DNA from: Tubiluchus corallicola
Taxonomy: Eukaryota; Animalia; Priapulida
Reading direction: 5' to 3'
Assembly (NCBI GenBank): GCA_030141605.1
Contig: JAQGDQ010000525.1
Coordinates: 62,985 to 126,984, forward strand
DNA: 64,000 nt
Shown here in pieces: positions 1,432 to 64,000 of this stretch. A program made the position numbers and the translations under genes. The notes under the pieces were generated by a model that was given only the letters and a program-made list of their open reading frames with translations, did not search any database and was not told the origin of the DNA. Every line of letters begins with the position of its first letter. Positions within the stretch are counted from its first letter, which is position 1.

Positions 1432-14867
<13,436 letters not shown>

Positions 14868-24100: not shown

Positions 24101-27100
24101 TTTTATTGGAATCCAGTAAATATGCAGCTGCAGATCTGCTGTAAATGCAACATGACCAAGATTGGGTTAATTTAATTAGACTAAAAAAAATGTTATCTAA
24201 TCGAAGTCTACAGCTTCAAAAACGCAGATGAATTTATAACCACCCAACACACACTTCATGTAATGTGCTTAAATGATATGACTGATTCATGCCTGCGCTG
24301 ACTTCCAGGCCGAAAGTAAAAAAAAAACGGTAGCAAAGACTGCATCTAGTCCCTTAATAAAAAATGGTAGATAATGTCTCAGCTCAAACGGGTTCAAATG
24401 CAACAGATAAAACTATAAAATTTATTCCCTATAATGTAACATTTTGCTTGAAAGTTATCAAATAACTTCTAGCACACTGTGAGTTTATTACCACGGAAAA
24501 ATTTTTTTGCTTGGAACATTGACAGATGTTGCTTCTATCAGACATCAACACAAAGTTACGAAAATCATTATTGGCAGATTCTCAGAAAAAATGTACAAAT
24601 GATTAGTTCATATAGAGGGTCCCGTTGTCGTAAACTACAACAAACGTTCAAGAGACAACTATGGGCAAAAAGCCTACTTATAGGCTTCGCCCTGTCGATC
24701 TACAGTAATCTACTGTAAGATTTTGTGGAGAAATCAAGCTCCTGCATTGCACTGGAGTAACATTACTGGAGTTATAATTGCAATAAGTGGAGTTTTGGAA
24801 ATACATGTACTAGACAGATATACTGGAACAAAAAGCTGACAGCCAGTTCAGTAGGCCTAACTTTGGTGACTTGATATGTACACTCCGGGTAGAAAAGTTC
24901 AACATACAAACTCAAAGAGACATAATCAGCTAAGAATTTCTAAAATTTTGCACCCTCCTAGATTCCCTGAAAGGTGTAGTCCAGGTGGTAAAGTTAATGA
25001 TTTAGGCCCGAAATGCTAGCAGAGTGATGCAAAACTAAAAATATATCTAATAACAAAACACTTATTATTATAGTATAAATCCACAGTTATTGTGCTAAGT
25101 TCAGATGCCAATTTGAAAAACAAATGTGAGAAGTTATGTGTGAAGCTAACTTTTAACCTTTGCTTTTAAACATAAAACATGAATCAACGAAGCACCTCAC
25201 TGTATAAATGCTTTTAGCACAAGAACAATTCAGTCACTAACTTGGAAAACATCTCCATAACCATAGTAGCGTAAGCCACAGAAGCAATTAAATTGCAAAA
25301 AACAATGGAAAACTGGCATAAGATAGTCCAGGCAAGAAACTGGTTTTTCAGAAAACATAAAAACGGTCCCAAGAGTAAGACATTTGGCAAACCTGGCATC
25401 AGACAAGCAGTTGTGAGAAGTTTATCATTGCTGATACCTGTTTTTATGCGTGTGTTAACGCAACGTGCTGTTTTGGTATTGTCATAGTCACCACCATGAA
25501 AATGAAATGGACAAGCCCTTCTTGGTCTTCTAGAAATGCTAACATGCAATAGGGGAAACAAGTGATGGTAGGGTTTTTCAGCTGACACAATTTGCCATTT
25601 TATTTGAATGGTTTCTGCTTGAATGTGAATGTTTTTGCTTGAGATTTGAATGTTGTCGTGTACACGAATAAATCACAGTCAACAAAAGTTACCGAAAATC
25701 AGAGAGATCAGGCCTCTCTGTATATCCACACTAATTACTACCACTTGCTGCACTACAACCTACAAATAAAACTACATACTGCAGAATGTGTGTATGCATA
25801 AACAGCACAAATTAGCTGATTTATTAGCTGTAGTAAAGATTACAGTACCACACAAGAGCCTAACAAAGACACATTTTTTACAACCTGCTTGTAAGGTTCT
25901 CTTCTCTAAGCAATTATTTTGTACCATGATTAAATCACTAGTATGATACTACTCCTACTACGAAAATGTCATAAAATAATTATTCTCTGCCTTTTGTAAG
26001 CCTGCTTTAATACCAAGTTAGTCTAAAATCAACGAAAATTGTCTCGAATCTACTACAACTGTGCATCTACACAAGGTGGCCTGGAGTTGATAAACTCTTG
26101 CCTTCTTTTTCATTTCAGAGCTCTTAATTTTCTGCAGATTTATTGTGAAATATTACATTCTAAACACATCTTATTACTGGATGCTACTAAGGTAACCCAA
26201 TTAAAATATATTTCTACTGTGCACTACAAAATTTTTTATTTTTATGAGGCAAACAAACGGTTGTGTTTGCAAAAGGAAATCCCTCTTGCCGGGAAAACCC
26301 TTGCATTACTTATCTTACTTATCTTTGTATAGAAGCATGATTTTTTTTATATAGTTACATATATACTAAAATCTATCACCACCTACTGGATACTACACTA
26401 AAATGATCATTAAAATGTATGATTTCCACTGCACACTATTCAAAAGAAAAGTAAATCTTCTACTGGATAAAACTTAAAATAGCTAGTAAATAACAAGTAT
26501 AGTGTAAAAGCAGTCCAAAGCATAATCGATACATGCTTACTTTAATTTTTGGTATAGTAGTATGATTTCTTATATAGCTAACTGTACATACTGAACTCTA
26601 TCCCCACCTACTAAATACTACTCTAATATGATTATTAAACTGCATAATTTACACTGCACACTACGAATACAAGCTAAAACTTCTAAAAGAAAAACCTTAA
26701 AACAGCTAGTAAATAACAAGACTACAATATAAAAGTTGTTAGGGTATAACGAATAGCGTGAAGACACTATGTAATTTAATGAGCAAGCACGCAGGTAATG
26801 CATCATGGCCCTACCTGCGATTGTTGAATGTTTCGAAGCCGACGAGGCAATCTCCTCGTATCGTAGCTAGCGGCCCGTCGTCGCATGTGACGAGGCAGTG
26901 TCTGAAAGGCTTGCACATTTGCCATCATCCGGCTTGCCAGGATGTTTTGCGTTAGTGATTCTATTTCTTGAGCACGTCTACGAGCGTACTCCGCAACTGA
27001 CACGTCTAAAAAAGGATGGGTCCCCGTGTAATTAGTGTCCATCACAGATTTGCAAACACCTCAAGAATAGTTTTTTCTGTTAGTTTGATCTGATATATAA

Positions 27101-33359: not shown

Positions 33360-34344
33360 ATGGTTACCGCTGTAAGTATTTCAGAGCTTTGTTATATGCT
33401 TTATTTTTTTGATAGGTGGCTGAGATCGATTTATCTAGTATATCGTGCTTTTAGTGGAAGTGATGTTCTGTTTGTGCATAGAATATAGCTGCAGTAACTT
33501 ATCCAATGGCAGATGCTACAATATCAACATAAACAATGTCAGACTGGGTGTTAATTTCACTAGATTTATTTTCATTGCTTAATAAAATTTAATCAATAAT
33601 GGATATTCATACTCTCTGTACTGGTTTAGGTGAAAGGTTATACTGTTTCATTCGTATCATCAACACACTGTTACAGTTTTTTAGTATTCAGCTATCATTT
33701 TGATTACAGTGGTTTTACTGTGGTTTGTGTCTCTGGATCAGTTCTTTAAAACATCATTGTAAAACCGTGAGCTCAATAACATATTCAATCCTAGTTTAAT
33801 CCGACCGTATAAAAGTACTCCGATGAACACTAGTTCATTTGTAGTAAATACATTGGTATTTACTCATGGTTATTTTTTAGGTAAACAAACACCGAATGCA
33901 TAGTCGCTGTCATAGAAAATGTAATGAATAACACCATCTCGTTGTTGTGAAACATCTGCTACAATCTACTGAGTATATTAACAGCAATGGTTATGCACAG
34001 GTGTGGCAACTATGATCTGCGGCATAGCTGATGAATTCACCTGTCTGACAAGTATTAATTCATGTAAGAAATGTTTAAAATAACCGAAGTGAAAATTTCA
34101 CCATTTTGTTTTTTGTTCCTAGCTAAAATCATAGTAAAGGTGATGCAGAATTTTCATGAAACTTTATAATTGAAAAGAATTTTTCTGTAATTTCTATTAA
34201 AATGCACCACAAACAAGAATATTTTTAAGTTACCTTGTAAAAAATTATAGTTCTGAATAAATTATGTAAAAATTTTTATATGAGTGTGATTTTTGCATCA
34301 TATCTATAGTTAGTTGATACTTCATTCTGCTTTAGTAGTCTCTG

Positions 34345-34637
34345 GATGTTAGTGCTTTGAAATGGTCTCTGGATGTGGTTTCTCTGACGTCTTGTGGCCT
34401 GTTCCACAAGCATATTACTCTGGGGTAGAAGTATATTAAGTAAATGATGAGTCTTGCTACTGGTTAATGAATTTGCTGTTATTCCTGTCACTCAAGGATA
34501 ACAGCAAATTCATTCTACCAGCAGCAAGAGTCAACATTTACTTATATTCCTACCATGGAACTATACACTTATCCAACAAAGTTCCCCTCAGACATCAGAA
34601 AAATCACATCCAGAGACCACTTCAGTGCACTAACACC
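34345..34637. repeat. Imperfect ~290-bp palindrome with ~8-nt loop
   Basis: Centre aatgaatttgctgttattcct-gtcactca-aggataacagcaaattcatt; outer arms gttagtgctttgaaatggtctctggatgtg / cacatccagagaccacttcagtgcactaac. Confidence 0.8.
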
Positions 34638-35984
34638 CTCAGCTGCTACTACAATGGGAGTGCCACCACACCTTACCTGTCTGTAAATCTAGTCATGTTT
34701 TTAGCCTGCACCCACCATGTTTGATTTCCCTTCTTTCACCTCTAATCATAACCTCCAGTACCATCACCAATTACTGAGTTGTTTTTCTCAGAATTTATAC
34801 CAATCGTGCACACCCTAGCTACTACTGTGTCATGAAAGATTTAGAAGCATATTGTTCAAAACTTCAATTAGTATGTACTAGTGACATGTAATAGCCACCA
34901 TTGATGATTGTGTACGGTTTATTGGGTAATATATTTGGTATTAATAGAAATTATTCACTGAAGCTCTTAGACTGCTGTGAAAGTTATTAGTTACTTTGCC
35001 ACATTCTAGTTGTAAAGTACAAACTGGGTCATTTTGTCGTAACAGACCTTATAAAGTAATAAAGAGACACATTTCTGAACAATAAACTTTGCTGTAGCTA
35101 GCACATTAATAAATTACTTGTCACAATGAGGTTTATTACATTAACACAATTTTGGAAAACCAGAATGTGATTAACTTTATCTAACCTGATGAAGGAAGCA
35201 GTGGTTTCCCAAAATATCGTTAATAATAATAAACGTTGTGATTAACTACTATTTTTATGGATACGCAACACCACTCGTCAACATTTATTGTTTGTTTCAT
35301 CAGAGTACTTTGTAACATGTAAGCAAGAATAACCAGGCAGTAGAATGCGTACTCATTTCATAGTAGCAAACTGGTATATCTAAAGTTTGAGGAATTTAGT
35401 ACTATGGGGCAAACATGTAGGCATTTTGGCATATTTTAATATTAATCGATTACTGATCATTAAACTGTTAGAACATTTTTTCTTTTCATTGGGAACAATC
35501 TCATCTTTCTTTTCTGAGATAAGATTGATTATTCTAAAAAGAATACTGGCATATTGCCCTTGGGCGTAGTGCCGTTGTTTATAAAACTACTGGAGATACA
35601 AAACTTATCAGTCTCTTATGACATTTTACTTCAGCATTTATACTGATAACCCAGATCTCTAGCTGAAAATCTTTCGAGCCACTGATTTCCTGTAATCCTT
35701 CCTCAGCCATTTCTCCTGCATTATGATTTCTTCCTTAAATATGCCTTTCAGCTTGAAATTTTGATACATGTACATTCTTTGTTTAAAAATAGTGGGTTCA
35801 TGGTTTAGCTCAAAGAACACAAGATGCAAGTCTAATTCATGTTTATGACAAGCTTAATAAAAATGTATTACGGTATGCAGAAATTATTTTCTGAAGTGAC
35901 TGAATATCAGTTGATGACTTTATTGTGACAGAATCATCATCAGAATCGTATCTTTCCAAGTTTTCAAGTGGACAAAAGAAGAAA

Positions 35985-41900: not shown

Positions 41901-44900
41901 AAAACTTTTACTTGCTAATGCAATTCATTGTTTTCAGGCCAAAGGTATGCCAGATGTTAACACCAGACTTATGCTTCACAAACTGTGGAGTTCTTTCAAC
42001 ATACCCATTCTGGCCTTGGTGGACGCTGATCCACATGGCATAGAAATTATGTGTGTGTACAAATACGGTTCTAAGGTAAACCTGCTATGTCTTTTTGTAA
42101 AGTGGCTTACATTTTTGAGAGGTCAAATTCGTTTGTTTCAACCAAAGCAAAGAACACAACCATTTGAGATTTGAGTGTGCTTAGACTGCGAAGTTAAACA
42201 ACACCAAGCTCTGGTCAGTAACTCGACAGGTTTTGCCAACAGAGTGGTTTTTGGGTGGGTTTTCCCGTAATGTGGTTATTTATTTTGATGCGGGTGGACG
42301 TAAGTGCATTTGTGTGTGGCTAAGGTACTTTTATCGGTTCACCATCTGATCTTAGAAGATTGTCTTTGACTGTAAACAAAGCTCTTGTCCTGCCACAACC
42401 ACATACATTAAATATGCCCTGTTGCTGAATATTGTATCTTACCATACAGCATGCTGAACTGTATCAATATAATAATTCTTTTTAGTCATTTGCTGTTGGT
42501 TGTAAATTGTTTCGTCATGGTTTTAATTTTTTTAGTCATTGTCTCACGATGCAGACAACCTGACAGTTCCAATGTTGAAGTGGCTTGGCATACTTCCTAC
42601 AGATTTGAAACGGTAAGTCTGTGTAATATGTGGAGCAGGAGCTCATCGGATAGTCAAAGTTATTTATTGATTCCTGTAACAGTACGACAGATGTGTTTAA
42701 TATTACTTCTTATTTGCACGGTTCGTGCAACACCACAATAGCGCGGCTTTTAACATTAATACCCACTCTTACTGTGCCTGCTGCCACCATGTGAAACGGA
42801 TGTTAACAATCAGATATTTCTGTTCCCATTCAGCTTTATAAAGATACTTCTTAAATGTGTAACTTACCGTCACCTTTTGGGAAGTGTGTAGTTGGTGATT
42901 TTACTAAAGCACAATTCGGTTAGTAGTTTGTCTTAATGTCGCATTTTGTTGGAACACATTAGAGTCATTAAACGAGGCTGTATTGTCAAATTTGACTGCG
43001 AGGCTATCATTTGCTTACTATTGAACTGCCTGGTTTATAAATCAAAGGTCAAATGTCAGGTCAGGGTTAATGTGTGACTAGTTAGTGAATTTTGAGTCTG
43101 GCTTTACCTGGATGTGTGTGTTTGCAGTATGTGAAAAAAAACAAATATGTAATTTATAGCGAAATTTAGGAAACTCAATCACCAATATCAAAACTGGCAG
43201 AAAGCTAATGACGAAAATTATGCGATAGAGTTTATGCCCTTTTATAGCTCATGTAACAAATGAATGATCGTTATGTCAAAATTGTATAAAAGAAACAAAA
43301 TGTGAATGTGAAGAACTCGCTGAGCCTGGCTTTGAGCCTTGCGACAACTCGAGCATTTAGCAGCATGGATGCCTGGATTTTGTTCTGGTTATTCTTTCGT
43401 GCCAAGTTGTTAGATTGTACATTTATTGTAATAGAAAACATCTATAAAGGTATTTTGTTATATTATATATTAATTGGTATAATGTATTACTTATATATAT
43501 ATATATATATTATATATATTATATATATTATAGTATATTATATATACTATATATATATATATTATATATATATATAACAGAATGCCTCAATAGACGTTTT
43601 CTGTTACAATAAATGTACAACCCAATAACTTGGCATACAAAAATAAAATTTTGCAAACATTTGAATATATTCACATGTTAGTAAAATTTTATTTTTACGT
43701 GATCATGATGTTAAAAAAAATCTAAATTTATATGTGTGTGCATCTATCCTAAAAGCAATTTGATGAACGACATCTTTGTTAAGTCACAATTTGTAAAAAC
43801 CATTTTTATTACAGGTTGAAAATAAGCAGTGATTGCCTAATTCCACTGTCAAAGAGAGACCAAAACAAAGTTCGTGGTTTGATGAAGAGGGAGTATTTGG
43901 CCAGTGCAAAAGACTGGCTTCAACAGGTTGTTTACATTAGGTTTCTGCTTGTTAAAAATTCATTGTGAAAATGACTTTCTAATCACTAACTACAAAAACT
44001 CACACGTTTTATAAACTACTCAGTAGCAGCTTTCCAGGTGTGCACACTAGGTTTACTTGGCTTATTAAAATTTGGAAAGTGTATCCTCGAGGTAGGTCCG
44101 GGCGTGGGGTGATTTAGTTGCTTTGCTTTTCATGTTTGTCCAAGCATTTGAGCTAGCACACCAAACAGAGTCAGCGGACACAGTTTTTCCTTGCTAGCAC
44201 CAGCGGTTGAGATGTCAAGCTGTTGAGCTTGCTGTTTTTGTGCCCAGCAGTATGACAACCTTCTTTCAAGAATGTTTTAGCTTTCAAGAATATAAAACAA
44301 TGGCATAAATGTGACAGTGCAACTTGCATGCTCATCTCAAGACCATGACTTCTCTTTAGTTGCCACTTTCTGCGAAGTTCAAGCTTGCCCCGCTCGCATT
44401 TTAAAGCATTTGCAAAAATTTGTTGTCAGCAAAATTTGTGCCTTTTATGAAACGCCTTTAGGACAAACATGCTTAGCGAGAAAATTGTGCATGTTGGTCA
44501 AAGAGCTGAGGTCAAGAGTGCATACAGTATAGCTGTCATGCTGTAGTCAAGGATAGTCATAGTAAACTATACTGAAACCCAGTTGAAATGAGTGTTTGCG
44601 TGATTAAGGTAAATTTCATTCGTTTTTTTTGTAAAACGTAAAATTCTGTGAATTGTTTGCATTTGCATTTATTTAGATGATGTAGTTTTTAGAGTTATGC
44701 AAAGTTTTGTTTTACATTACTTGTCTGAATACCACCATTTAATGTTATGCAATTTGTTAAGCTACTCAGAAAATTGCAAGTTTTGATGTTTCAGGACAGT
44801 TATTATTTCTCACGTCCAAACAAACTGTTGATAAACGTAGCTATGCCAGTGTAATTCAAATTGTTTAGAATCTACAACACTCTCTATTTCAAACACATTT

Positions 44901-49310: not shown

Positions 49311-49437
49311 GATAGTGAAGAACAGTAGCAGCGTAATTTGTGCAGCATGCGTTTCTGGCAATTTGTGCTTCCTGACCAAGATTCTGCTTCGATTGTGGAT
49401 CAATTGTGTGATCATTAGAAACTTGCAACGACCAAGA

Positions 49438-50528
49438 TGTTTCCAAGTTCATAATTGAGTGCTTCGTTTTTGTATTGTTATGTATTAATGCGTCAGACCG
49501 CATTAATAAAGTAGTTCGGTAACACGCATAATGCATACAGTATAAATGGTGTACTGTATTTCGTTATTTCTACTAGAAATCCAGGTACATCCAGGGCCTA
49601 TTTCAGCCTAGGCGAGGCCCGGGGAAGTGGGGCGTGTGAGGCCTCATCGGGGATGGGGCGATGCGCCGGGGGGCGGGCGCCACCATTGTTGGCGCCCAAA
49701 AACTTTTTGAACTGCTAGAACGCCGCAGAAGCATTTTCCAAGAGAAAATATGGAGTTATACAGTTGTTAAAGGAAAGAACAATTAAAAAGGTTTTATTCT
49801 CAAGACCAGTCCTTAATACTTGTCAATACTGGCAAACGGCGCGCGTGCGGCAAGAATGGGAGAGAGGAGGCAGTATGTTCGCATAAAGCAAAAAAAAATG
49901 TTACATTGGCGCGAGGCCCTGGAGGGTGAGGCCCCGGGGAAGTATCCCCACTTCCCCCCTTGAAATAGGCCCTGGGTACATCAACATAAAACATGGTGTC
50001 AGAAGTATAAATTTAGTGAAAACAAAGTAAATAGAATATGGAGAATCTAAAGCCACCAAAATTTTCCACGGATGAAGTGAACCTCGCCCAGAACTGGAAA
50101 GAATTTAAAGCCGAATTCAACGTGTTCATGACAGCCGCTGGTAAGCAGAATGAACAGAAAGTTGCGTTGTTAACAACTGTACGCAATGGGCAAGGAATAT
50201 CAAAAAGTTTTCATCAACTTGGACTTGACAGACGACGAAAAGTCTGAATATACAGCAGTTACCGCTAAATTTGACAATTATTTCGAACCACGAAAATTAC
50301 GTAAAGGGTACATTACACAATTTCAGCAGAGAAAACAAGGTCAGTATGAGAGTATTGCTGAATTTATTACTGCATTTAAAGACATAGCTGTCAATTGCGA
50401 ATTTTGTGATGGATTAAATGACTGATTATGTGTTGCAATTAGCAATGGTGTAAGAGACCCAAAGTTAAGAGAAAAACTGTGGAGCGAAGATTTGAACTTA
50501 GACGAAATTATTAAAAGGGTGCAGTTAT
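49438..50528 (+). mobile_element. Inverted copy of the 5' end of gypsy element A (LTR 49438-49993, tRNA-Leu PBS 49994-50006, decayed gag 50038-50528)
   Basis: LTR ends TGTTT...AAACA; PBS TGGTGTCAGAAGT complementary to tRNA-Leu 3' end; gag MENLKPPKFSTDEVNLAQNWKEFKAEF; reverse complement of ~57975-58682. Confidence 0.88.
49592..49974. mobile_element. hAT-family MITE (383 bp) inserted in the left LTR
   Basis: Perfect 14-bp TIR cagggcctatttca / tgaaataggccctg; 8-bp TSD ggtacatc (49584-49591, 49975-49982); the paralogous LTR near 58515 carries the empty site with a single ggtacatc. Confidence 0.96.
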
Positions 50529-52495
50529 AATGTTCAATTTCTCTATGTCTCCAAAGATTTAAATCATCTTCCGTTGATATAGTTCAGGGGCGGAAGATAT
50601 GCCCATTTGAAGTCTCCTGTACATGTATCGGCCAAACGGTGTATTGAACGCTGTTAACAAGCTTGACTCTTCATCAAGTTCTAGTTGGAAATAACGAGAG
50701 TTGGCATCTAGCACTGTGAAATGTTGGCTTCCACTGACACGAGTAATTATATCACCAACAGTATTAATTAGGTAATACTCTCTAAGTAAGGCTTTGTTTA
50801 AATCTTTAGGGTCAATTGTTAATCTCACATCAACATCTGGGCTTAACCCTTTCTTTTTCACAACATGTAATGAGCTGCACCAAGGTGTGGGAGTACCTAC
50901 TGGAATTTTTTCAATAATTCCCATTTCAACTAGTTCATCTAATTTCTTTTTTGCAGGTTCACGTAAGGCTGCTGGAATGGGCCTTGGGGGGTGAGTAACA
51001 GGTTTTACAGATTCATTACATTTTAATGAAACTTTACCAGGCATTTTTCCAATACCCTGAAACACATCTATATATTCATACAATAAAGCTCTAACTGCAG
51101 GATATGGGCATTTTCAATGCTTTCATGCACTTGCGCGTTTTTATGTAGGCCTATGTTCAACAGGATTAACTCTTTGCAACAATTTTAGCTTAAGACTAGT
51201 TTCTAAACTAAGTATATTTGGTACACTGCCGTTTACTAGTTCACATTTCAACAAATAATTTGCTCCTTTGTACACAACTGGTAATTCAACAACACGTAAA
51301 GGTTTAATGGGTGCACTATCAAAACCATAGATAACTGTATTGGATTTAGTTATTTTAGGTATACATTGTATCATACTGCTTTTTCGAAATTACATTTACA
51401 TCTACAGCTGAATCTATCTTAAAGCTCATACTGCCGCCATCACGAAGTTTGAAATTCACAGTCCAGGCTTTCTTGCTGTCATTTGATCGACATGAAGCCT
51501 GATTTGTTTTGTTACACCAAATGAATGACTTATCTAGACAGTTATCATAATTAGTATTGCTTGAGTCATCATTAACACTTAGGTTATCTACAGACCTACT
51601 CAGATCATTTTCACCATACATGCAAGCATCATTATGTGAAAAATTCTGTGATTCAACACAATTTACTCTTTTTCTGCATACTCTTGCAAAATGATTGTAT
51701 CGTTAGCAAAAATTACATTGCTGCCGCCATGCTGGACATTTTCTCGGTGGATGTGAATAACCACAGCTGTAGCATGTACTATCATGAATTCTGAAGCGTT
51801 GATTAAAACTGTGGTCACTATTCTGCATGTATTTTCCTCGCTGTGAAGTATTGCTACGCTGTTGCTGGAACAACGCTGAGTCATGACGCTGCTGATTTTT
51901 GCTACTCGGCAAAACTGACTGTTGTCGGTCATTTGTTGAAAAATCATGTCGCTGAATGTTGTGGTACCTAGTGAAGTGCAACATGGCGGTTTTGGTGCCT
52001 CGTCGAAATCCCGCATTCCTATAAAATCTCCTTTTTTTCGTGTACACGTAGCGTTTTTAAGTGCGCAAATATTGAAAAGCGGTTTAGAAAGCGCTGAATA
52101 TTGTTGAAACAGTGTTTATGTAAACAGTTGCGATTGCGGTTGCAGAAGTAATTTGAATATTTAGGCGATAAAATGATTGAGATAATGGTCATGCAATTAC
52201 AAATGGCGGAAGAGTGATTAAACATTTTTTTTGCTTGTGTGGAGTTACCTTGCACATTGTGTTTTTTCGCTATCAGCTACTAACAAATACGGGCCGTCTA
52301 TTTGAACTTGGTTTGCAGTGTTACCTGGGGTGGACCCGCCTGGGACGAAGATTGGGCATGCTTCTTAGCTAGTTTAGACTAAAACTTGAAAAAGTAGTAA
52401 GTAGTGCGAGTAGGTAGTACCAAAATCCTTGCATTGTGGCGTCTTTTGCACTTTGAAACCTTACCTGAATGAGTGTTTTTTTTTGAAAATTTGAA

Positions 52496-54280
52496 ATGAG
52501 CGGAGTTGACTTGGGTACTGTTAATAGTGGCAATACACCCGAAGTTAATTCTAATATAGCAGTGTTGGCAATAAGAACTTCTAGTGAACAAAAATCATCA
52601 AGAGAAGGGAATGTGTACAGGGATGCAAACAGTGATCCCAAAGAAATAGAGGAGGATGTGAGTCAAAGTGGAGAACCGAGTGGGCACGAGAGGGATGATA
52701 TAGTAGAGTACTGCGCAGAATGTGGAGAAATTTGTGGGTTCGAAGGAGCTTTCCAGTGTGAGGAACCGAAGTGTAAAACATGGATTCATTATAAATGTAG
52801 TGGGCTACCCCCCTATAGTATACTAGTTTTGGAGGGAACTGTCCGAAAATTTTCTTGTCCTAAGTGCTCAGTTGAGAAGGTACCACTAGGAAAGTTGGCC
52901 AAAGGCAAAAAACGAGAAGAAAGACTGGAAGAAATTAAGGCAATAGTAGGAGAAACACCAGTGACTAAGATGGCTAGTGAGGTCCAGAGTTTAGCAGAGA
53001 AGGTTAAGGAATTAGCAGAACATAATATAAAACTGGGAGAGAAAGTAAGTAAACAGGAAGAAGAAATTGCAGACCTCGCAAAAAAGTTAGCAATTTGCCG
53101 GCTTGAAGCAGATAAGGCAAGTGAAGAGAAATCTAACATGAAGGCTGAAATAAAGCAGCTTAAGCAAGATTTACGAATCGAGAGAGAGGGCTGCGAACGG
53201 CTAAGTAGAAATAATGAGCAAATGGGTGAAGAGATAAAAACAACTGTAGCTGATAATAATACCCTTAGAAAAGAGATAGAAAACAAACAAAAGCAAAAAG
53301 AAACGCTTGAAGAAGAAAATAACCAGCTACGATTAGAGGTGGGTGACATTCAGAAAAAGTGGCTGGAAGATAAGAAAGAAAGTGAAACACAAGTGACAGA
53401 AATACGTGATTTGCAAAAAAAGCTATTTTCTCCCATTGACAATGACAATGACCAAGTTAAGGAATTGGCCGAACTAAGGCAAACCATAAAACACTTAAAT
53501 GAGTATGTAACATTGTTAAAAGGAAAAAGCAGTCTCTTGGTTTCTGTAAATGATACAGAAGAGAATGCAGACAGAATGGCAGAAGTATCCAAAAGAGATA
53601 ACGTCACAGAAAGAATGCAGCCACGTACTGCTAATCAAAGAAAAAAGTTAGATGGAAATCAAATATGTCGGAATTTTGAAAAATGGGGTAGCTGCAGATT
53701 TGGGTCCAGCTGTAGATACGTCCATGAAACTAGGAATGTTGGAAGTGGCGATAACCAAGCACCAGTAGAAAAAAGAGTAGCTCCACTTTGTTGGCAATAT
53801 GAAAAGACAGGAACATGTACATGGGGATTAAGATGTAAATTCCGTCATGAATATACAGATTTTGAGAACAAGTTATATGCGGAAGGTAGATATGTACCTT
53901 CTTATGAAAGAAATAAGAAGACTAATAGACAAAATTATATGGCATGGCATAATAGCATGAGTGGAAATACAACGGCTGCAGAAATAGGAATTTCAAGAGG
54001 AAATCCATATGGGAACCAGGGAGAGTTAACTGATTTGCATAAAAAAATGGATTTTTTATTACAGAGGGTGAGATCAGTAGACGATTATCAACAGAAGGGA
54101 TTGCAGGGTTATGTAATGCAAGGTCAGGAAATGAACAACATTCAAAGCAGGGGGAACGTAATAATTCCGAGCGAGAACTGGAGCCATTTGACATGGCAAC
54201 AAGCACATTCAAGTATGAATTCAAACATTCTGGTCTCACAGAGAGTTGCAGCTCAGGGTCCAATAGTCCCGACTCAGTAA
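52496..54280 (+). CDS. LINE ORF1: PHD finger, long coiled coil, two CCCH zinc fingers (594 aa, intact)
   Basis: CAEC...CEEPKCKTWIHYKC...CPKC (PHD); E/K-rich heptad region; CRNFEKWGSCRFGSSCRYVH and CWQYEKTGTCTWGLRCKFRH (C-x8-C-x5-C-x3-H). Confidence 0.88.
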   Translation: MSGVDLGTVNSGNTPEVNSNIAVLAIRTSSEQKSSREGNVYRDANSDPKEIEEDVSQSGEPSGHERDDIVEYCAECGEICGFEGAFQCEEPKCKTWIHYKCSGLPPYSILVLEGTVRKFSCPKCSVEKVPLGKLAKGKKREERLEEIKAIVGETPVTKMASEVQSLAEKVKELAEHNIKLGEKVSKQEEEIADLAKKLAICRLEADKASEEKSNMKAEIKQLKQDLRIEREGCERLSRNNEQMGEEIKTTVADNNTLRKEIENKQKQKETLEEENNQLRLEVGDIQKKWLEDKKESETQVTEIRDLQKKLFSPIDNDNDQVKELAELRQTIKHLNEYVTLLKGKSSLLVSVNDTEENADRMAEVSKRDNVTERMQPRTANQRKKLDGNQICRNFEKWGSCRFGSSCRYVHETRNVGSGDNQAPVEKRVAPLCWQYEKTGTCTWGLRCKFRHEYTDFENKLYAEGRYVPSYERNKKTNRQNYMAWHNSMSGNTTAAEIGISRGNPYGNQGELTDLHKKMDFLLQRVRSVDDYQQKGLQGYVMQGQEMNNIQSRGNVIIPSENWSHLTWQQAHSSMNSNILVSQRVAAQGPIVPTQ

Positions 54281-54307
54281 TAAAAAATAAAGAAAATATT
54301 ACAAAAA

Positions 54308-57300
54308 ATGCAAAATATAAACAATGGTAAAAAAGTTAAAAACAATAAAAAACGAAAAAAAGGAAAACGACAAATAAACTTTGTGCTAGGATTTCATAAT
54401 GTACAGGGTTTAATTAAACAAAATAAGCAAATAGAAATGGTTGAGTGGTTAATAGAAAAAAACATAGATATTATGTTTACAGTGGAAACCTGGTTAAGAG
54501 ACGATGCAGTGTTGAGTAATATGCATCCCTACTCTTGTAAATCTATAAATCGAGAGGGTAACGCCAAAAAAGGAGGAGGTATAGGAGTTTTTTCAAAAGA
54601 AAGCTCAAAAAAGGATATAAAATATATAGAAATCGACCAAGCAGTAAAACGTGAAATTTGTTTCATAGAATGGAATGAATGGGTTTTTGGAGTTGTCTAG
54701 TTAGGTGTGAATAAAGAGGAAAACAAGTTGGAAAATATAAAAATTATGAGTGAAATTGGAAGAATATGTTTTGATAATAATAAAAAACATATTTTGATAC
54801 TCGGTGACTTCAATGCACATATACAAGAATTTGCTGGCGAAGATAATCAAAATGGCAAATTATTAACAAATTTATGCGAAATGTATGGATTATTGCTATT
54901 AAATAGTGTGTGGCCAAAGATGGATGATTTCACTTGGACGAACGGACGATATAGTTCAACCATTGACTATGCATTAGTGAATGATTCAGGTTTCCACTCA
55001 ATAAAAAACTGTGAAGTAGTATGGGAGAGTGGTGCGTGTTCGGATCATGCAGCTCTAGTGGTAAGCAGTATGGGAGAGTGGTGCGTGTTCGGATCATGCA
55101 GCTCTAGTGGTAAGCATCAAAACAAGGGGGTACATAAGCAGTAAATACAAAAAACTCCAGAATGAAAGAATAAGAAAGAAATGGAAATTTAATAAAGATA
55201 TTGATTGGGATCTGTTTCAGAATATGGTGGAAGAAAAGGCAGTTAAAGAGGAAAAAACGTTGTCTTCGATACTAGTAGAAGTAGCAGAGAAAGTAATAGG
55301 CAGGAGGACACCAAGGAAAGGAAAGAGGGGTAGAATAAATGCCCCGTGGTTCGATAAAGAGATTAGATTAGCAATAAAGCAAAGACGAGATGCAATAAAA
55401 AATTGGAGGAAAGCAAAAAAAACAAAATAGATTAGAGCATACAAGCTATTGGTGGAAAAAATACACAGTTTTTAAGCGAAAAACTAAAATACTGGTTGCA
55501 GAGAAAAGAACTACATGGGCAGCAAAATGGATGAAAGAAGTAGAGCAAGAAGATAGATATAAAAGAAAATTCTGGAGACACTTTAAAGACATAACAAAGA
55601 GTAAACAGGAATCTGAAAGTGGAGAAGAGAACTTATTTTTGATTTCTGACGAAGGTGAAAAAATAACTGAGGAAAATATAATTTCCCAAGAAATAATTAA
55701 GAAGTGGGGATCGCTTTTTCAGTTAAAAACGCATGCTCAGATACTAAGTAAAGAGATGGATAATAAGGATATGCCATTGAAAGATGTCGAACTTATGTAC
55801 ATGATCAGCGATGAAGAATTAGACAGAGCACTTATAAGTATAAAAAGTGGTAAAGCATATGGAGACGATGATGTAGCTGGAGAGTTTTTAATTGGTCTTA
55901 AAAGTAAAGCAAAACAAATATTAAAAAAAGAGCTCAACTCTGTCATTTTGACAAGAAGTATACCAGTATCATGGAAAACAGGAACAATTTCTCTCATTCA
56001 TAAAAAGGAAGAAAAAGAAAAGGTCGAAAATTATAGGCCTATAGCTATAATTTCAGTGGTCGGGAAATTGTTATCAAATATTTTAAAAACTAGGGTAGTA
56101 AAGGAACTAGAATTAAGAAATGTGGTTGCCGAAGAACAGAATGGATTTAGGATTGGCAGAAGGTTGGAGGATAACCTATGCATATTGACTCTTTTGAGAG
56201 AAATAGCTTCTATACAGGAACGAAGCCTTTGGGTGGTGATGTTAGACCTAGAAAAAGCCTATGATCGTGTCGACCAACAAAAACTGTGGCAAGTATTGAC
56301 ACATTTAGGTGCAGAGCAATCCTTTCTTGAATTTTGGAAATCATGGTACGATGGTTTTAATGTTAGATTTGTTTGGAGAAGTATCAAAACAGATAACGTA
56401 ACAGTAACGTCAGGTGTAAAACAGGGTGATCCTATGTCCTCTGTATTTTTCTCATTGTATATTAATAAAATGTTAAAAGAAATAAGTAGGTCAAAAAGAG
56501 GATACAAAATAGATGAAAATATAATAGTGAGCATATTAGCTTTTGCCGATGACACCGCGCTAATTACAGAATTTGAAGCGGATATGGTAGTGTTATTGAA
56601 GATTGCGAATGATCTTGGAAAAGAGTTTGGCATGAAATTTAGTGCGACCAAGTGTGCATCAATTCTTCTTAGTGGAGCTAATGCTAACACAGTCTTTAAG
56701 ATAGGTGACATACCTATACATGCAACAGAAAGAGAAAAATACCTAGGGGTAATTATAAGAGCCATAGAAGATGAACATAGCTGGAAAGAAAGAATACCAG
56801 ATATTAGAAGAACCATAGGTGCCGTAAAATTTGCGGCAATGCAATCAGAAGCAAGATTGGAAATAGGAAGAACAGGCTGGAAAGCAATTGTAGTCCCTAA
56901 AATAATGTTTGCTTGTGTGGGCAGAACATACAGCCAAAAGGAAGTTGATTGGTATAACAGCATTCAAGAAGAATTTGTAAGATGGCTCTGGAAAGCAAAA
57001 GGATGCAGTGGTGCTGCTATTAGAGGTGAGGCGGGTTTTTCATCCTTTGAAGAACGGGAAGCAAAGGCGCGACTAAAATTTTTTAAAAGAATTATATTTA
57101 TGACTGATAATCGGTTACTGAAAAAAGTGGTAATATGGGTAGTGACACACAGAATTCGATCGAAATGGCTGCAAAGAATCAGACATTTGGGGGATAAATT
57201 TGGGCTTCCGGTATTTGGCAATATTATGGCATTAGGGGAATTAAATGAGGTAGGTTTGAATAAAATTTATGATAAACATTTGGGTGAAAAAGCATGGGAT

Positions 57301-57735
57301 GTGCATATAGAGAAAACTATAGCTGAAACTGGATTAAAAATGTGGAATGAAAAATTAAGTAAATGTTCGACAGTAGAAAGATATAGAGACTGCAAAAGTT
57401 CTATATCATTTGAACCCAGGATGAATGATACATGGGGTGCAGAATTGCTTGTCAAAGCTAGGGTTGGCGCATTAGAAGTATTGGGAAATCCCTTGTATGC
57501 TTGTAAAGTAGGCTACTGCATAGAAAAAAGACTTTGTAAATGTGGTAATATTGAAACTGCAGAACACATAATATTAAGTTGTGAATTTTACACAGAGATG
57601 AGAAACAGAGTCCCTTGGCAAGGAGTAACTGATGAAGAGTGCTTGAGATGGTTGTTATTTGGAGAGGGAAAAATTTATGCAGTCTGCCTACTGAAGGACA
57701 TAATGGTTAGAAGAAGAGGCATAGTGAATCATTAG
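54308..57735 (+). pseudogene. LINE ORF2 (AP endonuclease, reverse transcriptase, C-terminal zinc knuckle), disrupted
   Basis: APE motifs HNVQG, VETW, GGGI, LGDFNAH, IDY, SDH; RT motifs NYRPI, EQNGFR, LDLEKAYD, GVKQGDPMS, FADD, KYLG; CKCGNIETAEHIILSC. Stops at 54698 and 55428, a 49-bp duplication frameshift and a further frameshift near 55470. Confidence 0.9.
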
Positions 57736-58682
57736 AGCTTGCATATGTGTGCGCCTTAGCATTTTCGGGTAGTAATCATATTATGTTAAAAAGCCTAGTA
57801 GTACAATATACATTGCTACTTGCCCTGTTATAAAAGGGATTTAGGCACCGGATGGATGGATGGATGGACCTACTTCTGCTTCTTCCACGACCACGAACAG
57901 TATTTATATTCACGTGCTGGTCTGCACTATTAATTGGTGTGTACAACACACGAGACTGTTGTTGTTGCACAAATAACTGCACCCTTTTAATAATTTTGTC
58001 TAAGTTCAAATCTTCGCTCCACAGTTTTTCTCTTAACTTTGGGTCTCTTACACCATTGCTAATTGCAACACATAATCGGTCATTTAATTCATCACCAAAT
58101 TCGCAATTGACAGCTATGTCTTTAAATGCAGTAATAAATTCAGCAATACTCTCATACTGACCTTGTTTTCTCTACTGAAATTGTGTAATGTACCCTTTAC
58201 GTAATTTTCGTCGTTCGAAATAATTGTCATATTTAGCGGTAACTGCTGTATATTCAGACTTTTCTTCGTCTGTGAAGTCCAAATTGTTGAAAACTTTTTG
58301 ATATTCCTTGCCCATTGCGTTCAGTAACAACGCAACTTTCTGTTCATTCTGCTTACCAGCGGCTGTCATGAACACGTTGAATTCGGCTTTAAATTCTTTC
58401 CTGTCCTGGGCGAGGTTCACTTTATCCGTGGAAAATTTTGGTGGCTTTAGATTCTCCATATTCTATTTACTTTGTTTTCACTAAATTTATACTTCTGACA
58501 CCATGTTTTATGTTGATGTACCTGGATTTCTAGTAGAAATAACGAAATACAGTACACCATTATACTGTATGCATTATGCGTGTTACCGAACTACTTTATT
58601 TACAATGCGTTCTGACGCATTAATACATAACAATAACAACACAAGAACGACGCACTCAATTATGAACTTGGAAACATCTTGG

Positions 58683-61600
58683 TAAATAACTATGGAAGTT
58701 TTTGCTGAATCAATCAAAGTGGTTTATTTATGATATTGCAGCAATGATCAGGCTGAAATAACAACAACAAAATAATTACATATAATACTGCCATACCGCA
58801 TAAGTACAAATATAAATGTTTCGAATTATACTAATTTAAGCATTGTTCCTTTAATCACAAAAGTATAACTGCAAATAATATACCGTTCTAAATGTTAAAC
58901 ATCTGCTCGACACTGCATGGAGTTCTTATCGTTAAATGTGTTAAGAATTGCCTCCTGGCAAACAGCAATACGGGTGCTCTTCATATGCTGAAATCTTCAA
59001 GATCCTCTATCCCCCCCCCTAAGTCTTGGACGGAGGTAGCATACGTCGAAGACTGATAACTGACCAAATTACCAGACATATCAAAGTCTTTGTGCCACTG
59101 AGGAGTTGTCCTCTGCCGAGTTGAACGACGTAGTGGTATAACTGGGTTGGGTGGAGCTGATGCAGTCGAAGAAGGGTCAATGGACTTATCAACTGGTTTG
59201 GAATTGTCTGGTATGGTAGTTAGTGGAATATGTGAGGGTGTGCTGAGGTTAGGGAGAGGGTCCTCTGGTCCAACAGGTTTGTCTGTTTGTTCGAAATCCA
59301 TGTGTTTGGGTGACTGTAAGGTTGAATTATTAGGGCGTTGGTTTGTTTTAGGTGGCAAAGTGGTTGATGTTGAAGGTTTCTCAACTGGTAAGCATCTGTC
59401 ATTGTAAGCAAGGTCAGTATCAATAGAGATACTGGGGCGTGGTGGATGAATTGGTTCATATTTCCGAAGAAAACGTCTATTCCGAAGTGTTACTCGGCCC
59501 GAGCCATCCACCTTGATGACATATTGACGGACTTCAATGACTATACCAGACTTGTCCCATTTGGTAGGATGTTTCCCAGTCTGATTTTGTAAATGTACCT
59601 TGTCACCAACAACTAGTGGGGGTAAGCGTTTTGTATTTTCAGTCCACCGTTCCGATGCTTTCATGTGTCTGTTACGCAGGGCTTCTTCTCGGGCCAGTAG
59701 TGATTCCTGCCAAGTGTTATGAGGTTGGTAGCGACCGGGTATTATAGGGATGAAATCTCGTATAGTGCGGCCGAACAGACACTGGGCAGGTGAGAGTTTG
59801 GTATCTCTGTCTGGGCAGTTTCTGTACTGCAGGATTGCTCGTTGAAACAAGTCTGTATTAAGGTCTCCCTGGGGGCCAGTATTATTCATAATCATGCGCT
59901 TAATGGTCTTAACACCTAATTCGGCTCTACAATTGCTGTGAGGAAAGGCAACCGAAGAGAGACGATGATGGACACCCCAGTCTGAAAAAAACTGGCGTGT
60001 TTGGAATGAAATAAATTCTGGGCCACCATCTGAGGCCAGTTCTTCAGCAATGCCGTAAGTGACAAAAACTCGGCGGAGGCAAGCAATGAGACCAGTGGCC
60101 CCAATTGGAGAACGTTCGACAATGGGCCAGTTGGAATAACGGTCAACAACAACGAGGTAGTAGACGCCCTTGTAATGAAAGAAGTCAGTGCAGATGCACT
60201 GAAATGGGTATACCGGCAAAACTGGGGGAACGGGCGGTGCTGCCGGTTGTGAGGGTGCAATACGGTTGCATTCTTGGCAACGACTTCGAAGTGCCGATAT
60301 GGCTGTCGTTATGCCTGGCCAGAATACTGATGATTCTGCACGAGAAATCATGGATGAGACCCCTTGGTGTGCTGCATGGAGTGATGAAAGCACAGTGTCA
60401 CGTAGGCATGGGGGAATAACGATGCGCTCTTTATAGAGAATAACACCATCGATGGTGTGGAGGTGTTCCCTGAACTGGTAATACTCACGTATTGGAGCTG
60501 GGAACTCCTGACGTGCTTCTGGCACGTTAGTTTCTATGATGTCTCTTAATAAGTTCATGGTGGTGTCACTTGTTGTAGCAACTCGGACCATATCCCATGT
60601 CACTGATTTGAAGTTTGCAAGCTTTGTGGCAGCTGAACATATTAAGGATGTCTCAAAGGAATCTGAAGGCGTTTCCTGACAACGAATACCTTCCAAAAAG
60701 AAAGTAGGTAGGTTTGGCAAGGTAATATTAGTGTCCTGTCGAATTGTGGCAATGTCGTCAGGCAAAGGCATATCACCAGCATGGCCAGGGCAAGACGGGT
60801 GTTGAGAGATGCCATCTGCAGCTCGATGTTTTGCTCCAGGGACATGTATGACCTGGAATTTGAAACGGAGCGTCTTTTCCTTCAGATTCCTAAGGCGAGG
60901 GTTGGGCATGTCATCAAGGGATCTGTTGCTGAAGATCTTGAGCAATGGTTTGTGGTCCACTGCAATAGTCAGGTTTGTACAACCCAGGACAAAGTACCTA
61001 GCTTTTTGAAGGGCATCTGCCACTGCTAGGGCTTCACCTTCAATTGGGGCATATCGCGATTCTGCTGGTGTGGTGAATCAGCTACCCACAAGAGCGATTT
61101 TCCACCCAGTACGGCAACAAAAAGGAGCTGATTTGGGGCATTTGCAGTGTTTTTGCAGCAGCCAGAAGCCAATGCCTGATTTTGACCAATCAGTGGCCAA
61201 GCATGTCGGCCGTGTTTTATCGAAAATTCGAACACCGTCTTCTATTTCCTGAACAATGAGTGCCTTGGACTCATTAAATATCTCATCTAGTTGTGCATGC
61301 CATGTGAATGGGGTCCCGGGTTTCAGGAGTGCACGGAATGGAAGCATTCGGTCAGCCATACTGAAAGCATAACTAACTTGGTTTATTACGCCAAACCAGG
61401 ATCGAACATCAGTGATGTTTTTTGGAGTGGGAAATTTTAGTATAGCTTCGAGATATCGCCGACAAGGGCGGACACTATTGGGTGTAATTTCAAATCCTGC
61501 AAATTCAACTGTGTCTTCAGCAAAGATGAACTTGTCAGGATTAAGAGTGATGCCGTGACGGCCACATATGTCAAGCCATTCTATTGCCTGGAAAAAGATT

Positions 61601-64000
61601 TCTTGGATTGTAGGTGACCGGAGGAGTGTGTCATCAATACATTTTGTGTGATGGGGTACGTGTGACACAATTTCGTCATAGCGTCTTGAGTAACCATCAC
61701 CCGAAGCAATGTAACCCTGAGGGGCTGTTTTGTAGCGATATCGGCCCCACGGAGTGATAAACGTAGTAAGATGGCGGTCCTCTGCACGGATTGGGACACT
61801 GTGGTAGCCATTCCAGGCATCAAGTACTGTTTTCTTCATGTTTGGGGGTACAGATCTTGCCTGCAGAAATGGTGACTGGGTGTGGTAGGTTTCTCTTGTG
61901 GCATGAACATTTAGGGCTTGAAAGTCAACAGTTCTGCGGGGTTGGCCATTTTTCTTGGGGCATACAATCATTCGATGGCACCAAGTGACAGGTTCGCCAA
62001 TGGGGACAGGTTCCAAGACTCCTAGGTGGACGTCGCGATCTATATCTGCTTTGACTTGTTTCTGCCAATGCAAGGCGACTGGGATGGGGTTGTGATGTGC
62101 CACGGGGGTGGCATCAGAATTCACCATGAGTTTCAAAGGGGCCCTTCCATAAGTGGGAGAGGTTGGTGCTCACATATGTTGAATGTGCTTGCCTTGTAAG
62201 TGTCGAGGAGGTACTGTCTCAGTTTTGGCAAATTTTCTTGCGTTGGTGAAAATGGCAGTTGGGAGGGTGGTGTAGGTGGCAGCTGTCGTCGTGGACAGTG
62301 GCACTCAGATGTCAAACCACTACTGTTTTGTTGGGGTTTGGATATGTCATGTGTCTCAGATGAAGTGCTGTTTGATGATGATATCTCTAGCGTGTTGCAC
62401 ACCTCACCAATCTTTGGAAAGCTTTCTGTGATCATTCCGAGTGCAATACAAGCTTCACGGCAAATGTATAATTTGTTTGAAGTATCGGTGACATATACGA
62501 TCTGCCTGGTTTCTAGTTGTTTGCCAGCCGTAGATGTACCAGTGAATCTTAGGATAGCAGCGCCAAGGATGTTAATTCCACGATCATTTGCAGCTTGCAT
62601 GCGCATGGTGACAGGTATGAGATGTTGCTCTGATATGCCTATGCGAGTGAGGATTTTAAGGCTGCACAAGCAACTCTGGCATCCGGTGTCTGCTATTGCT
62701 GAAATTATACAAGAATTTGGTTGTCTGCCACAGCGAAAACCAAGGGCTGTGTAGTCACTTGGGTTTATTGACATGCGCAGTGTAAGAAATGGTTGAGGCT
62801 TCGATGGTTGGCGTAGCCAACTATTACACATCTGGTCATATAGGTGATGACTAAGGGGAACTGTACGACGGCTATTTTTTTCATGTACGTGTGGTGTAAA
62901 TGAACACAATGTATCGAACACAGCTCCCTGTTCACCCAGTGAGGTGGATTGTTCACGACCTCTGTCACGGTCTGGAGCAGCATGTTTTGGCTTATTTCTA
63001 GATCTACATACCGGAGCGAAATGGTTTCTGCGACTGCAATATGTACAGGTTTTGCCGAAAGCTGGACATTTGTCCTGTCGTAATTTAAAATCAGAACCAC
63101 TTCCATGACCGTGCCTTCCACAGTGGCTGCATGGTTCGGATGTTTTATCTTTGGCTAGATTACTTGTTGTTCGTCTGTATGAGCTACGCACTGCTTCAGC
63201 ATTGTGGGTATCGAAGAGTTTTGAAGCAGATCGTTTTCCAGATTCTCTGCTTTCAATTAGCATTAATAATTCTTCGATTTCCATAACTTGATTTTTGTCA
63301 CCGAGAATGTCCAGTTGGATTTCTGGATCTGCGATGCCGCGTGTGATACAGTCACAAATTATTTCGTTGGTATAGCTGACACTGGTGTCGCACTCGGGAC
63401 ATTTCACTTCATAATTGCAGATGCTGGCTTGTCCTCGTAGACGGGCGCAGAATGCACGGATAGGTTCTTCACGGTCTTGTCGCATATCATGCAATGCTAC
63501 ACGAGCCACCATGGTGTTCTCAACGCGAACAGCGAGCTGTTTGATAGCATTAAGAACTACATCTTCTGCTTTGCCACTGAGACTGCCACCAGCAGAGCGA
63601 GTGAGATCTTTACGTAACGTTTCATCACAACATTCTAATAATTGAATTACTCTGTCTTTACCAGTGATACCAGTGGCATCTACGTATTCTTGCCAACGTG
63701 TGGTAAAATATGCCCATTCTTCGCTGGTACCGGCGGCAGATATAGTAGGCCTTTTCACTTTTTCAATTTTCGCAGTTGGAGCAGAATGTGCGGGTGGTGC
63801 CGCCTCTGTGTTCGTGGTGTGACTTCCACGATGTATTTGCAGGAGTTCGAGAACGATAGCCTCCGACAAGTCCTCTGTTGCATAATTGCAGCCAGTAATT
63901 GGGCATTGAACAATTGGCATTCTTCCGCCTGATCATAAATAACTATGGAAGTTTTTGCTGAATCAATCAAAGTGGTTTATTTATGATATTGCAGCAATGA
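58683..64000 (-). mobile_element. Ty3/gypsy (Mag-like) LTR retrotransposon B, near full length; 5' LTR runs off the window
   Basis: 3' LTR ~59009-58683 directly after a G9 polypurine tract (59011-59019); 63936-64000 is identical to 58683-58747; gag-PR 63920-62133, RT 62136-61078, RNaseH-IN to 58981. Confidence 0.95.
58981..63920 (-). pseudogene. Gag-PR-RT-RNaseH-IN polyprotein of element B with one frameshift and one nonsense codon
   Basis: N-terminal CPxxxC...H...H motif; knuckle CTYCSRRNHFAPVC; protease IADTG; RT LDAWNGYH, PWGRY, CIDD; RNase H TDWS, EALA, DHKPL; integrase HAAHQG..CQEC, CTDFF, SDGG, RAELG. Frameshift at ~62136; in-frame TGA at 61080-61078. Confidence 0.92.

Follow-up and report, generated by a model that had tools for sequence, protein, structure and literature searches.

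A Gypsy-type element of Tubiluchus corallicola and its relatives with primer-binding sites complementary to their own long terminal repeats: a case for predicted self-priming

Introduction

Element B is a retrotransposon with long terminal repeats (LTRs) located at the end of a 64,000-nucleotide stretch of the priapulid Tubiluchus corallicola (assembly GCA_030141605.1, contig JAQGDQ010000525.1, positions 62,985–126,984, forward strand), which is referred to here in its entirety as the window. The primer-binding site (PBS) of element B is complementary to a motif within its own LTR. This complementarity, with the 3′ end of the putative primer facing U5, recurs in a clade of related elements whose LTRs mostly end in TA, and the two partners covary from family to family. 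These properties point to reverse transcription that would be primed by the RNA of the element itself, rather than by a tRNA.

Results and Discussion

Structure and boundaries of element B

Element B lies on the minus strand and runs from beyond the window end down to 58683 (Table 1). Contigs from sister copies part from the sequence of the window at 59009, 58683 and 63936 (loose ends), which defines the LTR as a 327-bp repeat that starts and ends with TA and is directly abutted by the PBS. The window includes just 65 nt of the 5′ LTR, in which the final 4 nt of the 5′ motif copy are visible, so the argument on element B draws on the motif as found in the 3′ LTR. Element B is a broken copy, with its coding region in three separate frames; among 38 listed substitution sites in the sister-copy contigs, none falls at 58745–58758. 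Element B is inserted in an LTR of a second retrotransposon, element A, and a second A copy shows the empty site, with the 5-nt target present once at 49432–49436.

Table 1. Features of element B, in window coordinates
Feature	Position	Strand	Evidence or remark
5′ LTR, final 65 nt (remainder of R, plus U5), truncated at the window end	63936..64000	minus	100% identity to 58683–58747; contig loose ends place the LTR end at 63936
PBS, abutting the LTR, without TGG	63922..63935	minus	pairs with LTR motif
gag-protease frame, ATG 15 nt past the LTR end, stopping at a frame break	62133..63920	minus	285 gag relatives; Gag-like clusters in ESM Atlas
Reverse transcriptase with CIDD catalytic motif, then the first part of RNase H; stop codon at end	61078..62169	minus	Pfam RVT_1
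Remaining RNase H and integrase, without chromodomain	58981..61077	minus	Pfam RT_RNaseH, Integrase_H2C2, rve; tail without family at E 0.1
Inverted repeat AGTCTT...AAGACT adjoining the polypurine tract	59022..59054	minus	same pattern in 12/39 families
Polypurine tract	59010..59020	minus	
3′ LTR, 327 bp, TA...TA ends	58683..59009	minus	contig loose ends at 59009 and 58683
TATA-like TATTATAT, 33–26 nt ahead of the A in AG	58780..58787	minus	not conserved in relatives
Initiator-like and splice-acceptor-like U-rich tract with TTTCAG at its end; 5′ edge of primer	58753..58778	minus	
Predicted self-primer core, 8 nt after AG	58745..58752	minus	
Predicted R hairpin TTGCTG/CAGCAA around AATAAA (58728–58723)	58702..58744	minus	arms 58744–58739/58707–58702
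Likely 5-bp target-site duplication of element B	58678..58682		right copy; left copy outside the window

Pfam matches in the window follow the Gypsy order of reverse transcriptase (RT), RNase H and integrase. The best solved-structure match is Ty3 Gag-Pol, with a distant match to the Ty3 RT (80 bits over 271 amino acids). With this pol order, LTRs, a polypurine tract and, in relatives, a target duplication within the 4–6 bp of the superfamily, element B is a member of Ty3/Gypsy. The inverted repeat before the polypurine tract may aid plus-strand priming. Summed contig depth (run X3) across the LTR at 58683–59009 is many times that of the body; this depth is not a copy number, and the excess hints at many solo LTRs or non-autonomous copies.

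Complementarity between the PBS and the LTR

The original prediction for this locus held that the PBS of element B lacks the TGG expected of a tRNA primer and matches the 5′ end of its own transcript instead. All of the element B sequence that it quoted was found in place on the minus strand. TGG is indeed missing from 63935–63922, and the 10-nt complement between LTR and PBS is exact, extending to 13 of 14 Watson-Crick pairs when the flanks are included. The 10-mer GCCTGATCAT occurs in the window only twice, at 58753–58744 (minus strand) and as the complement of 63936–63927, compared with a mean of 0.08 matches per window in shuffles and an expectation of 0.00014 within the 327-nt LTR. The pairing reaches 58758 with one mismatch at one end, while at the other end 58744 pairs with the last base of the LTR. 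The calculated duplex energy is -18.0 kcal/mol for 14 nt and -16.0 kcal/mol for 9 nt. Natural window stretches folded separately show nothing unusual (z -0.9 to 0.4), as neither stretch holds both arms.

A second stem, TTGCTG/CAGCAA, had been proposed to close the loop. It is good in the window, where just 2 of 37 loops from other families match its pairing; across families, the own loop ranks in the top tenth in only 9 of 38. The hairpin of the window has -7.3 kcal/mol in this comparison and -8.6 kcal/mol as the predicted R hairpin fold, and the own loop is in the top tenth in 8 of the 23 families of the window's group (defined below).

Relatives and traits of the clade

A search with gag returned 285 proteins, whose named hosts are Mytilus, Saccostrea, Mya, Lytechinus, Actinostola and Paramuricea, in addition to contigs filed as bacterial; a search of viral contigs found no relatives. 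An alignment of 38 gag relatives was used to fetch 80 metagenome and 6 genome loci. These 86 loci and the window form 47 gag clusters at 80% amino-acid identity, and 39 families were judged. The eight clusters left out of the anchored test (see below) comprise six in which the contig is missing one side (L011, L012, L031, L052, L070 and L085) and two in which the LTR end was not recognised (L048 and L076). L078, in which the motif is mostly deleted, was kept in the anchored PBS test and dropped from the AG-site and duplex-energy tests. The gag tree is a quick version with many open forks and was used only to define three groups: branch X (9 families), branch Y (6 families) and the window's group (23 families).

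Loci with both LTRs have TA...TA ends and 5-bp target duplications, which are exact in L017, L019, L021, L028, L029, L035, L042 and L083 and have one mismatch in L018 and L086. The final two bases of the LTR are TA in 34 of the 39 families, GA in three, AA in one and TG in one. Five full-length relatives are single open reading frames of 1581–1639 residues with the Gypsy order of RT, RNase H and integrase, and the RT motif is C[VI]DD in 47 of 53 matches. The absence of a recognizable chromodomain, noted initially for the window, extends to the clade: none was detected at E 0.1 in the window tail or in nine relatives, including these five. Records filed as bacterial genomes or proteins also carry clade members (L081–L086; P0021, P0068 and P0199), which are most likely host DNA within the assemblies.

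Covariation between the PBS and the LTR

The association between the PBS and the LTR was assessed in two ways. In a blind test, one locus per cluster with the longest upstream sequence was compared with 30 shuffles (39 clusters with at least 150 nt; 7 skipped). The longest perfect stem upstream of gag exceeded all 30 shuffles in 24 of the 39 clusters, and 22 of these 24 stems are located at the LTR-end junction. The remaining two are an AT repeat (L065) and an extra upstream copy (L037), while coding controls gave stems of 6–10 nt. In L037, U3 carries the PBS sequence once more ahead of the primer (about 473–483), as a possible alternative pairing partner. The junction coincides with the end of a direct repeat in L010, L024, L083, L086 and six copies of the L017 family, and likewise in the window, based on the contig ends.

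In the anchored test, the PBS was scored against its own LTR and those of other families. Against 1482 foreign pairings, 37 of 39 families have an own-LTR score beyond the 95th percentile. Duplex energies are -17.2 kcal/mol for own and -4.3 kcal/mol for foreign partners, and the own partner is the best in 32 of 38 families and in the top tenth in all 38. The longest duplex of the set, 30 bp, is found in L079 (about 2940–3060), in which the LTR ends in AA, not TA.

Compensatory change between the LTR motif and the PBS, which the original prediction had suggested looking for, is clearly evident. Among the pairs predicted by RNAalifold, both sides have changed in 15 of 23 when 15 chosen sequences of one branch are aligned, and in 7 of 11 with 16 sequences of the other branches. 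Near-identical copies within a family reveal the same process on a smaller scale, with single compensated swaps in L028 and L044 and half-way states in L019 and L021. On the basis of sequence comparison, the relatives strongly support the earlier suggestion of tRNA-independent self-priming.

A host tRNA, or a tRNA fragment, could act as the primer if the match to the LTR were incidental. The search for tRNA genes covered the window, which has none. There are 36 different PBS 10-mers among the 39 families, none of which starts with TGG and each of which is matched by its own LTR, and an Rfam scan of 57500–64000 gave no tRNA match, with a single chance match. As the PBS and the LTR covary both across and within families, a tRNA primer cannot explain the data, and we give this explanation almost no credence. 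Priming by half of tRNA-Met was considered separately, as many primers end in ...CAT, and was dismissed since the bases further along are different in each family.

The AG site ahead of the primer

The motif starts with TCAGT in 8 of the 9 families of branch X. Pairing with the PBS extends through the G in 9/9 and the A in 8/9, and includes the base before the A in 0/9; such a limit would be expected if the RNA began at that A. Immediately past the duplex, the PBS has a C in all nine families, even though it lies opposite a C (for example, L017:6403). This invariant C could possibly result from copying of the cap by RT while the PBS is rewritten from the primer, or from shared ancestry.

In the window's group, an AG is found 8–15 nt ahead of the primer end in 23/23 families (chance of ~0.36 each). 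The original prediction noted an Inr-like TCA with a TATA-like sequence upstream. The letters and spacing are as described in the window, with TATTATAT at 58787–58780 and AATAAA at 58728–58723 both present, but the pattern does not carry over to the group, where TCAKT is found in 1/23 families and the TATA pattern in 2/23 (background 5%). The conserved feature is instead the AG. The TATTATAT of the window itself falls outside the TATA pattern, yet is at the canonical distance.

The AG of this group is also reminiscent of a 3′ splice acceptor. A strict acceptor signature (YAG, preceded by 20 nt free of AG, with pyrimidine at 60% or more) is present at 17 of 23 sites, compared to 28 of 328 other AGs (8.5%), and the AG is the best-scoring one of its own upstream stretch in 17/23 families, with any base following it. 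In the window, the AG at TTTCAG is the most acceptor-like of the 17 AGs in the LTR and resembles four acceptors of the host POP1 gene, as placed by alignment. A branch-like YTRAY is found in 12/23 families (vs 27%), pairing with the PBS drops from 18/23 just past the AG to 10 on the G and 8/23 on the A, and U3 is only 35–53 nt in five families (L014, L060, L058, L074 and L082). These features would be consistent with self-priming of an RNA with a spliced front, in which the AG joins R to a host exon or a spliced leader, the priming cut discards the addition and no promoter of the element is needed. SL1 trans-splicing of a subgenomic Cer1 RNA has been reported, according to the part of that study available (PMC3315495).

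Other observations argue against splicing. The nine initiator-type families of branch X have an AG at the same distance and six of them pass the acceptor test, which, as a result, cannot separate an initiator from a splice site. The PBS also pairs upstream of the AG in the window, L001, L040 and L079. Within the element, there is no donor that would complete the primer, nor is one conserved in gag-pol, where the best position is shared by 7/38 families, and no spliced contig was seen in the runs, which are of DNA type only. Furthermore, bivalves and a sea urchin are among the named hosts, and these are not known to have a spliced-leader system. We thus consider a spliced front unlikely. An extended version, in which a widespread animal clade has replaced its promoter with a splice acceptor and removes the borrowed front by the self-priming cut, while a sister branch retains a true initiator and the invariant C is a copied cap showing that the PBS is rewritten in each cycle, appears equally doubtful. 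It would explain how U3 can shrink to 35 nt, since the cut removes the borrowed front end.

Two related possibilities were tried and rejected. For PBS pairing across an exon-exon joint inside the LTR, the best donor within 400 nt upstream adds 0–5 nt in the 23 families; the gain is at most 2 nt where the LTR start is known, and four of the short U3 regions have no GT at least 38 nt upstream. A conserved internal donor for a Gag-only RNA was not found either (again, best position in 7/38 families).

An AATAAA-type hexamer between the primer and the LTR end is absent from 8 of the 9 branch X families (L017, L026, L032, L041, L061, L063, L084 and L086) and present in 22 of the 23 families of the window's group. 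The acceptor-like tract and the hexamer go together. In view of the evidence against real splicing (the six branch X families that pass the test, the upstream pairing, and the lack of a donor or a spliced contig), we take the AG to be the start region in every branch, and the tract to be a U3 signal for 3′-end formation.

A model for priming

Self-priming in some form is very probable for the clade. In the full version of the model, which we regard as likely, the RNA would start at or next to the conserved AG, its first 10–15 nt would fold back and pair with the PBS, and the RNase H of the element would cut after ...TCA, facing the LTR end, to yield the primer. We infer the start site, the cut and the enzyme from this arrangement and by analogy with Tf1. 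Placement of the cut after ...TCA follows from the base there, which lies opposite the first base of the PBS; a cut one base later is also possible. DNA synthesis starting exactly at the last LTR base would fit a PBS that touches the TA end with no spacer. The U-rich tract ahead of the AG lies in U3 and would hence be present only in the 3′ LTR of the RNA, where it most likely serves as an acceptor-like enhancer of polyadenylation. RNAalifold also predicts a stem at the end of U5 in branch X, with both-side changes; a partner-swap test lends this stem no support (3/38 families), but is a weak one as the stem is common to the families.

Several points weigh against the model. The RNA start, the cut and the primer are predicted from DNA sequence. 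Among the sequencing runs listed, no RNA run contains the element, and the one run presumed to be RNA contributed a single short piece, which does not fall on the LTR. The anchored test is partly circular, as the junctions of 30 of the 38 relatives were chosen by the best duplex score and 8 by hand, with only that of the window taken from contig ends; the blind test and the direct-repeat junctions are independent checks on it. In the blind test, 15 of 39 clusters failed to beat all shuffles. L048 and L076, with 246 and 493 nt upstream, respectively, have no recognizable LTR end, and L078 and L049 score at or below the foreign 95th percentile. The families are related, so neither the counts nor the covarying pairs represent independent events. 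The AG is found in only 2 of the 6 families of branch Y, with a variable boundary. The window's group rarely has the initiator or TATA patterns, and its pairing fades across the AG, as noted above, with 8/23 families still paired on the A. Finally, there is no support for a leader duplex after the PBS like the third one in the “pretzel” of Tf1, as the own partner ranks in the top tenth in just 2/38 families.

The primer could also derive from the element without being the 5′ end of the same molecule, either from the 3′ LTR copy, should transcription begin at the TCATT within the motif, or from short solo-LTR transcripts acting in trans, or the duplex might only regulate access to the site. The primer is followed by TT in 37/39 families, so that most motifs end in TCATT, an initiator-like word noted for Zam LTRs (PMC3601003), and the contig depth over the LTR, far above that of the body, hints at many solo LTRs. 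On the other hand, the TCA varies with the PBS (TGA, TTA, ACA, GCA, ATA and GTA), which a promoter element should not do, the pairing stop at the A of TCAGT in 8/9 families points to a 5′ end there, and cutting of the 3′ copy would probably remove the R needed for strand transfer. We thus consider these alternatives very improbable, and favor priming by the 5′ end of the same RNA.

If self-priming operates as proposed, the dozens of natural primer variants in this clade provide a comparative set for the needs of RNase H in cutting an RNA duplex. Such elements would be overlooked or mislabeled by annotation tools that depend on TG...CA ends plus a tRNA site. Were the AG used for splicing after all, it would represent a new route to the expression of LTR elements without a promoter of their own.

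Other features of the window

Element A has an ordinary tRNA-Leu PBS, as was originally assigned: 58503–58492 complements the 3′ 12-mer of tRNA-Leu (supplement of PMC13524379). The second LTR copy of element A contains an inserted element with terminal inverted repeats and an 8-bp duplication (about 49592–49974), which we take to be a hAT-like miniature inverted-repeat transposable element (MITE). A CCCH zinc-finger frame followed by an RT frame at 52487–57735 (plus strand) is probably a non-LTR retrotransposon. The host gene POP1, encoding an RNase P/MRP subunit, is located at 18180–27060 (minus strand), with its best match in Priapulus caudatus (85% over 75 residues); a POP1 search at E 1e-20 gave no match. 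Long inverted-repeat pairs at 3673–4465, 34344–34638 and 43389–43646 are probably foldback or MITE-type elements.

Comparison with known systems

The comparisons below, except for that with PMC3601003, draw on the available parts of the cited sources. In these, self-priming is demonstrated only for Tf1-type chromoviruses and is predicted in a few plant lineages (PMC6317226). No description of self-priming for a TA-ended Gypsy clade was found in the literature searched, which did not extend to Repbase Reports or subscription journals. Repbase entries reportedly mention self-primed Gypsy families in marine invertebrates.

In Tf1 and Tj1, the 5′ end of the RNA folds back, is cut by RNase H and is extended into U5 (PMC4600332, PMC5341516, bioRxiv 2022.12.06.519325). 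The clade of element B resembles Tf1 and Tf2 of Schizosaccharomyces pombe, Tj1 of S. japonicus and the Tf1/sushi group in general in having a PBS directly after the LTR that is complementary to the LTR near the predicted RNA start (in 37/39 families), in the orientation of the primer, with its 3′ end facing U5, and, in one branch, in a predicted stem at the end of U5. It differs in its invertebrate hosts, in its primers of 8–30 nt with a conserved AG ahead, and in LTRs that end in TA, compared to CA in the fission-yeast elements (bioRxiv 2022.12.06.519325). Due to its TA...TA ends, 5-bp duplications, C[VI]DD motif and lack of a chromodomain, the clade is not a typical Tf1/sushi lineage. A chromodomain-free Gypsy clade of this kind, with gag relatives named from bivalves, a sea urchin and cnidarians, suggests that priming without a tRNA evolved or persisted on more than one occasion.

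For the plant elements Tcn1 (Gypsy) and TAR, Houba and Osr-1 (Copia), self-priming was inferred from the same signature, at least 10 bp of the LTR complementary to the PBS position, and TAR carries the trait outside of the chromoviruses (PMC6317226). These elements have plant hosts, belong to another superfamily or are related to chromoviruses, and the portion of that study at hand makes no mention of TA ends or an acceptor-like site.

Among chromodomain-free Gypsy elements, the Mag A/B/C lineage and the mollusc and annelid clades MolGy, PolGy and LGF are common in the same host groups (PMC6238403, PMC8556966, PMC8220671); the parts of these surveys available say nothing on how such a clade is primed. 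LTR ends of TGTT...AACA are given for Mag A and Mag C (PMC3601003, Table 3), unlike the TA...TA of our clade, which weakens the original description of element B as Mag-like. Rare TATA-ended elements are reported in a tubeworm genome (PMC8220671). The clade of element B may be one of the numbered MolGy, PolGy or LGF clades. Troyka is likewise a marine-invertebrate LTR lineage set apart by ends other than TG...CA, but its CG...CG ends and 3-bp duplications (PMC12440569) contrast with the TA...TA ends and 5-bp duplications of the clade of element B.

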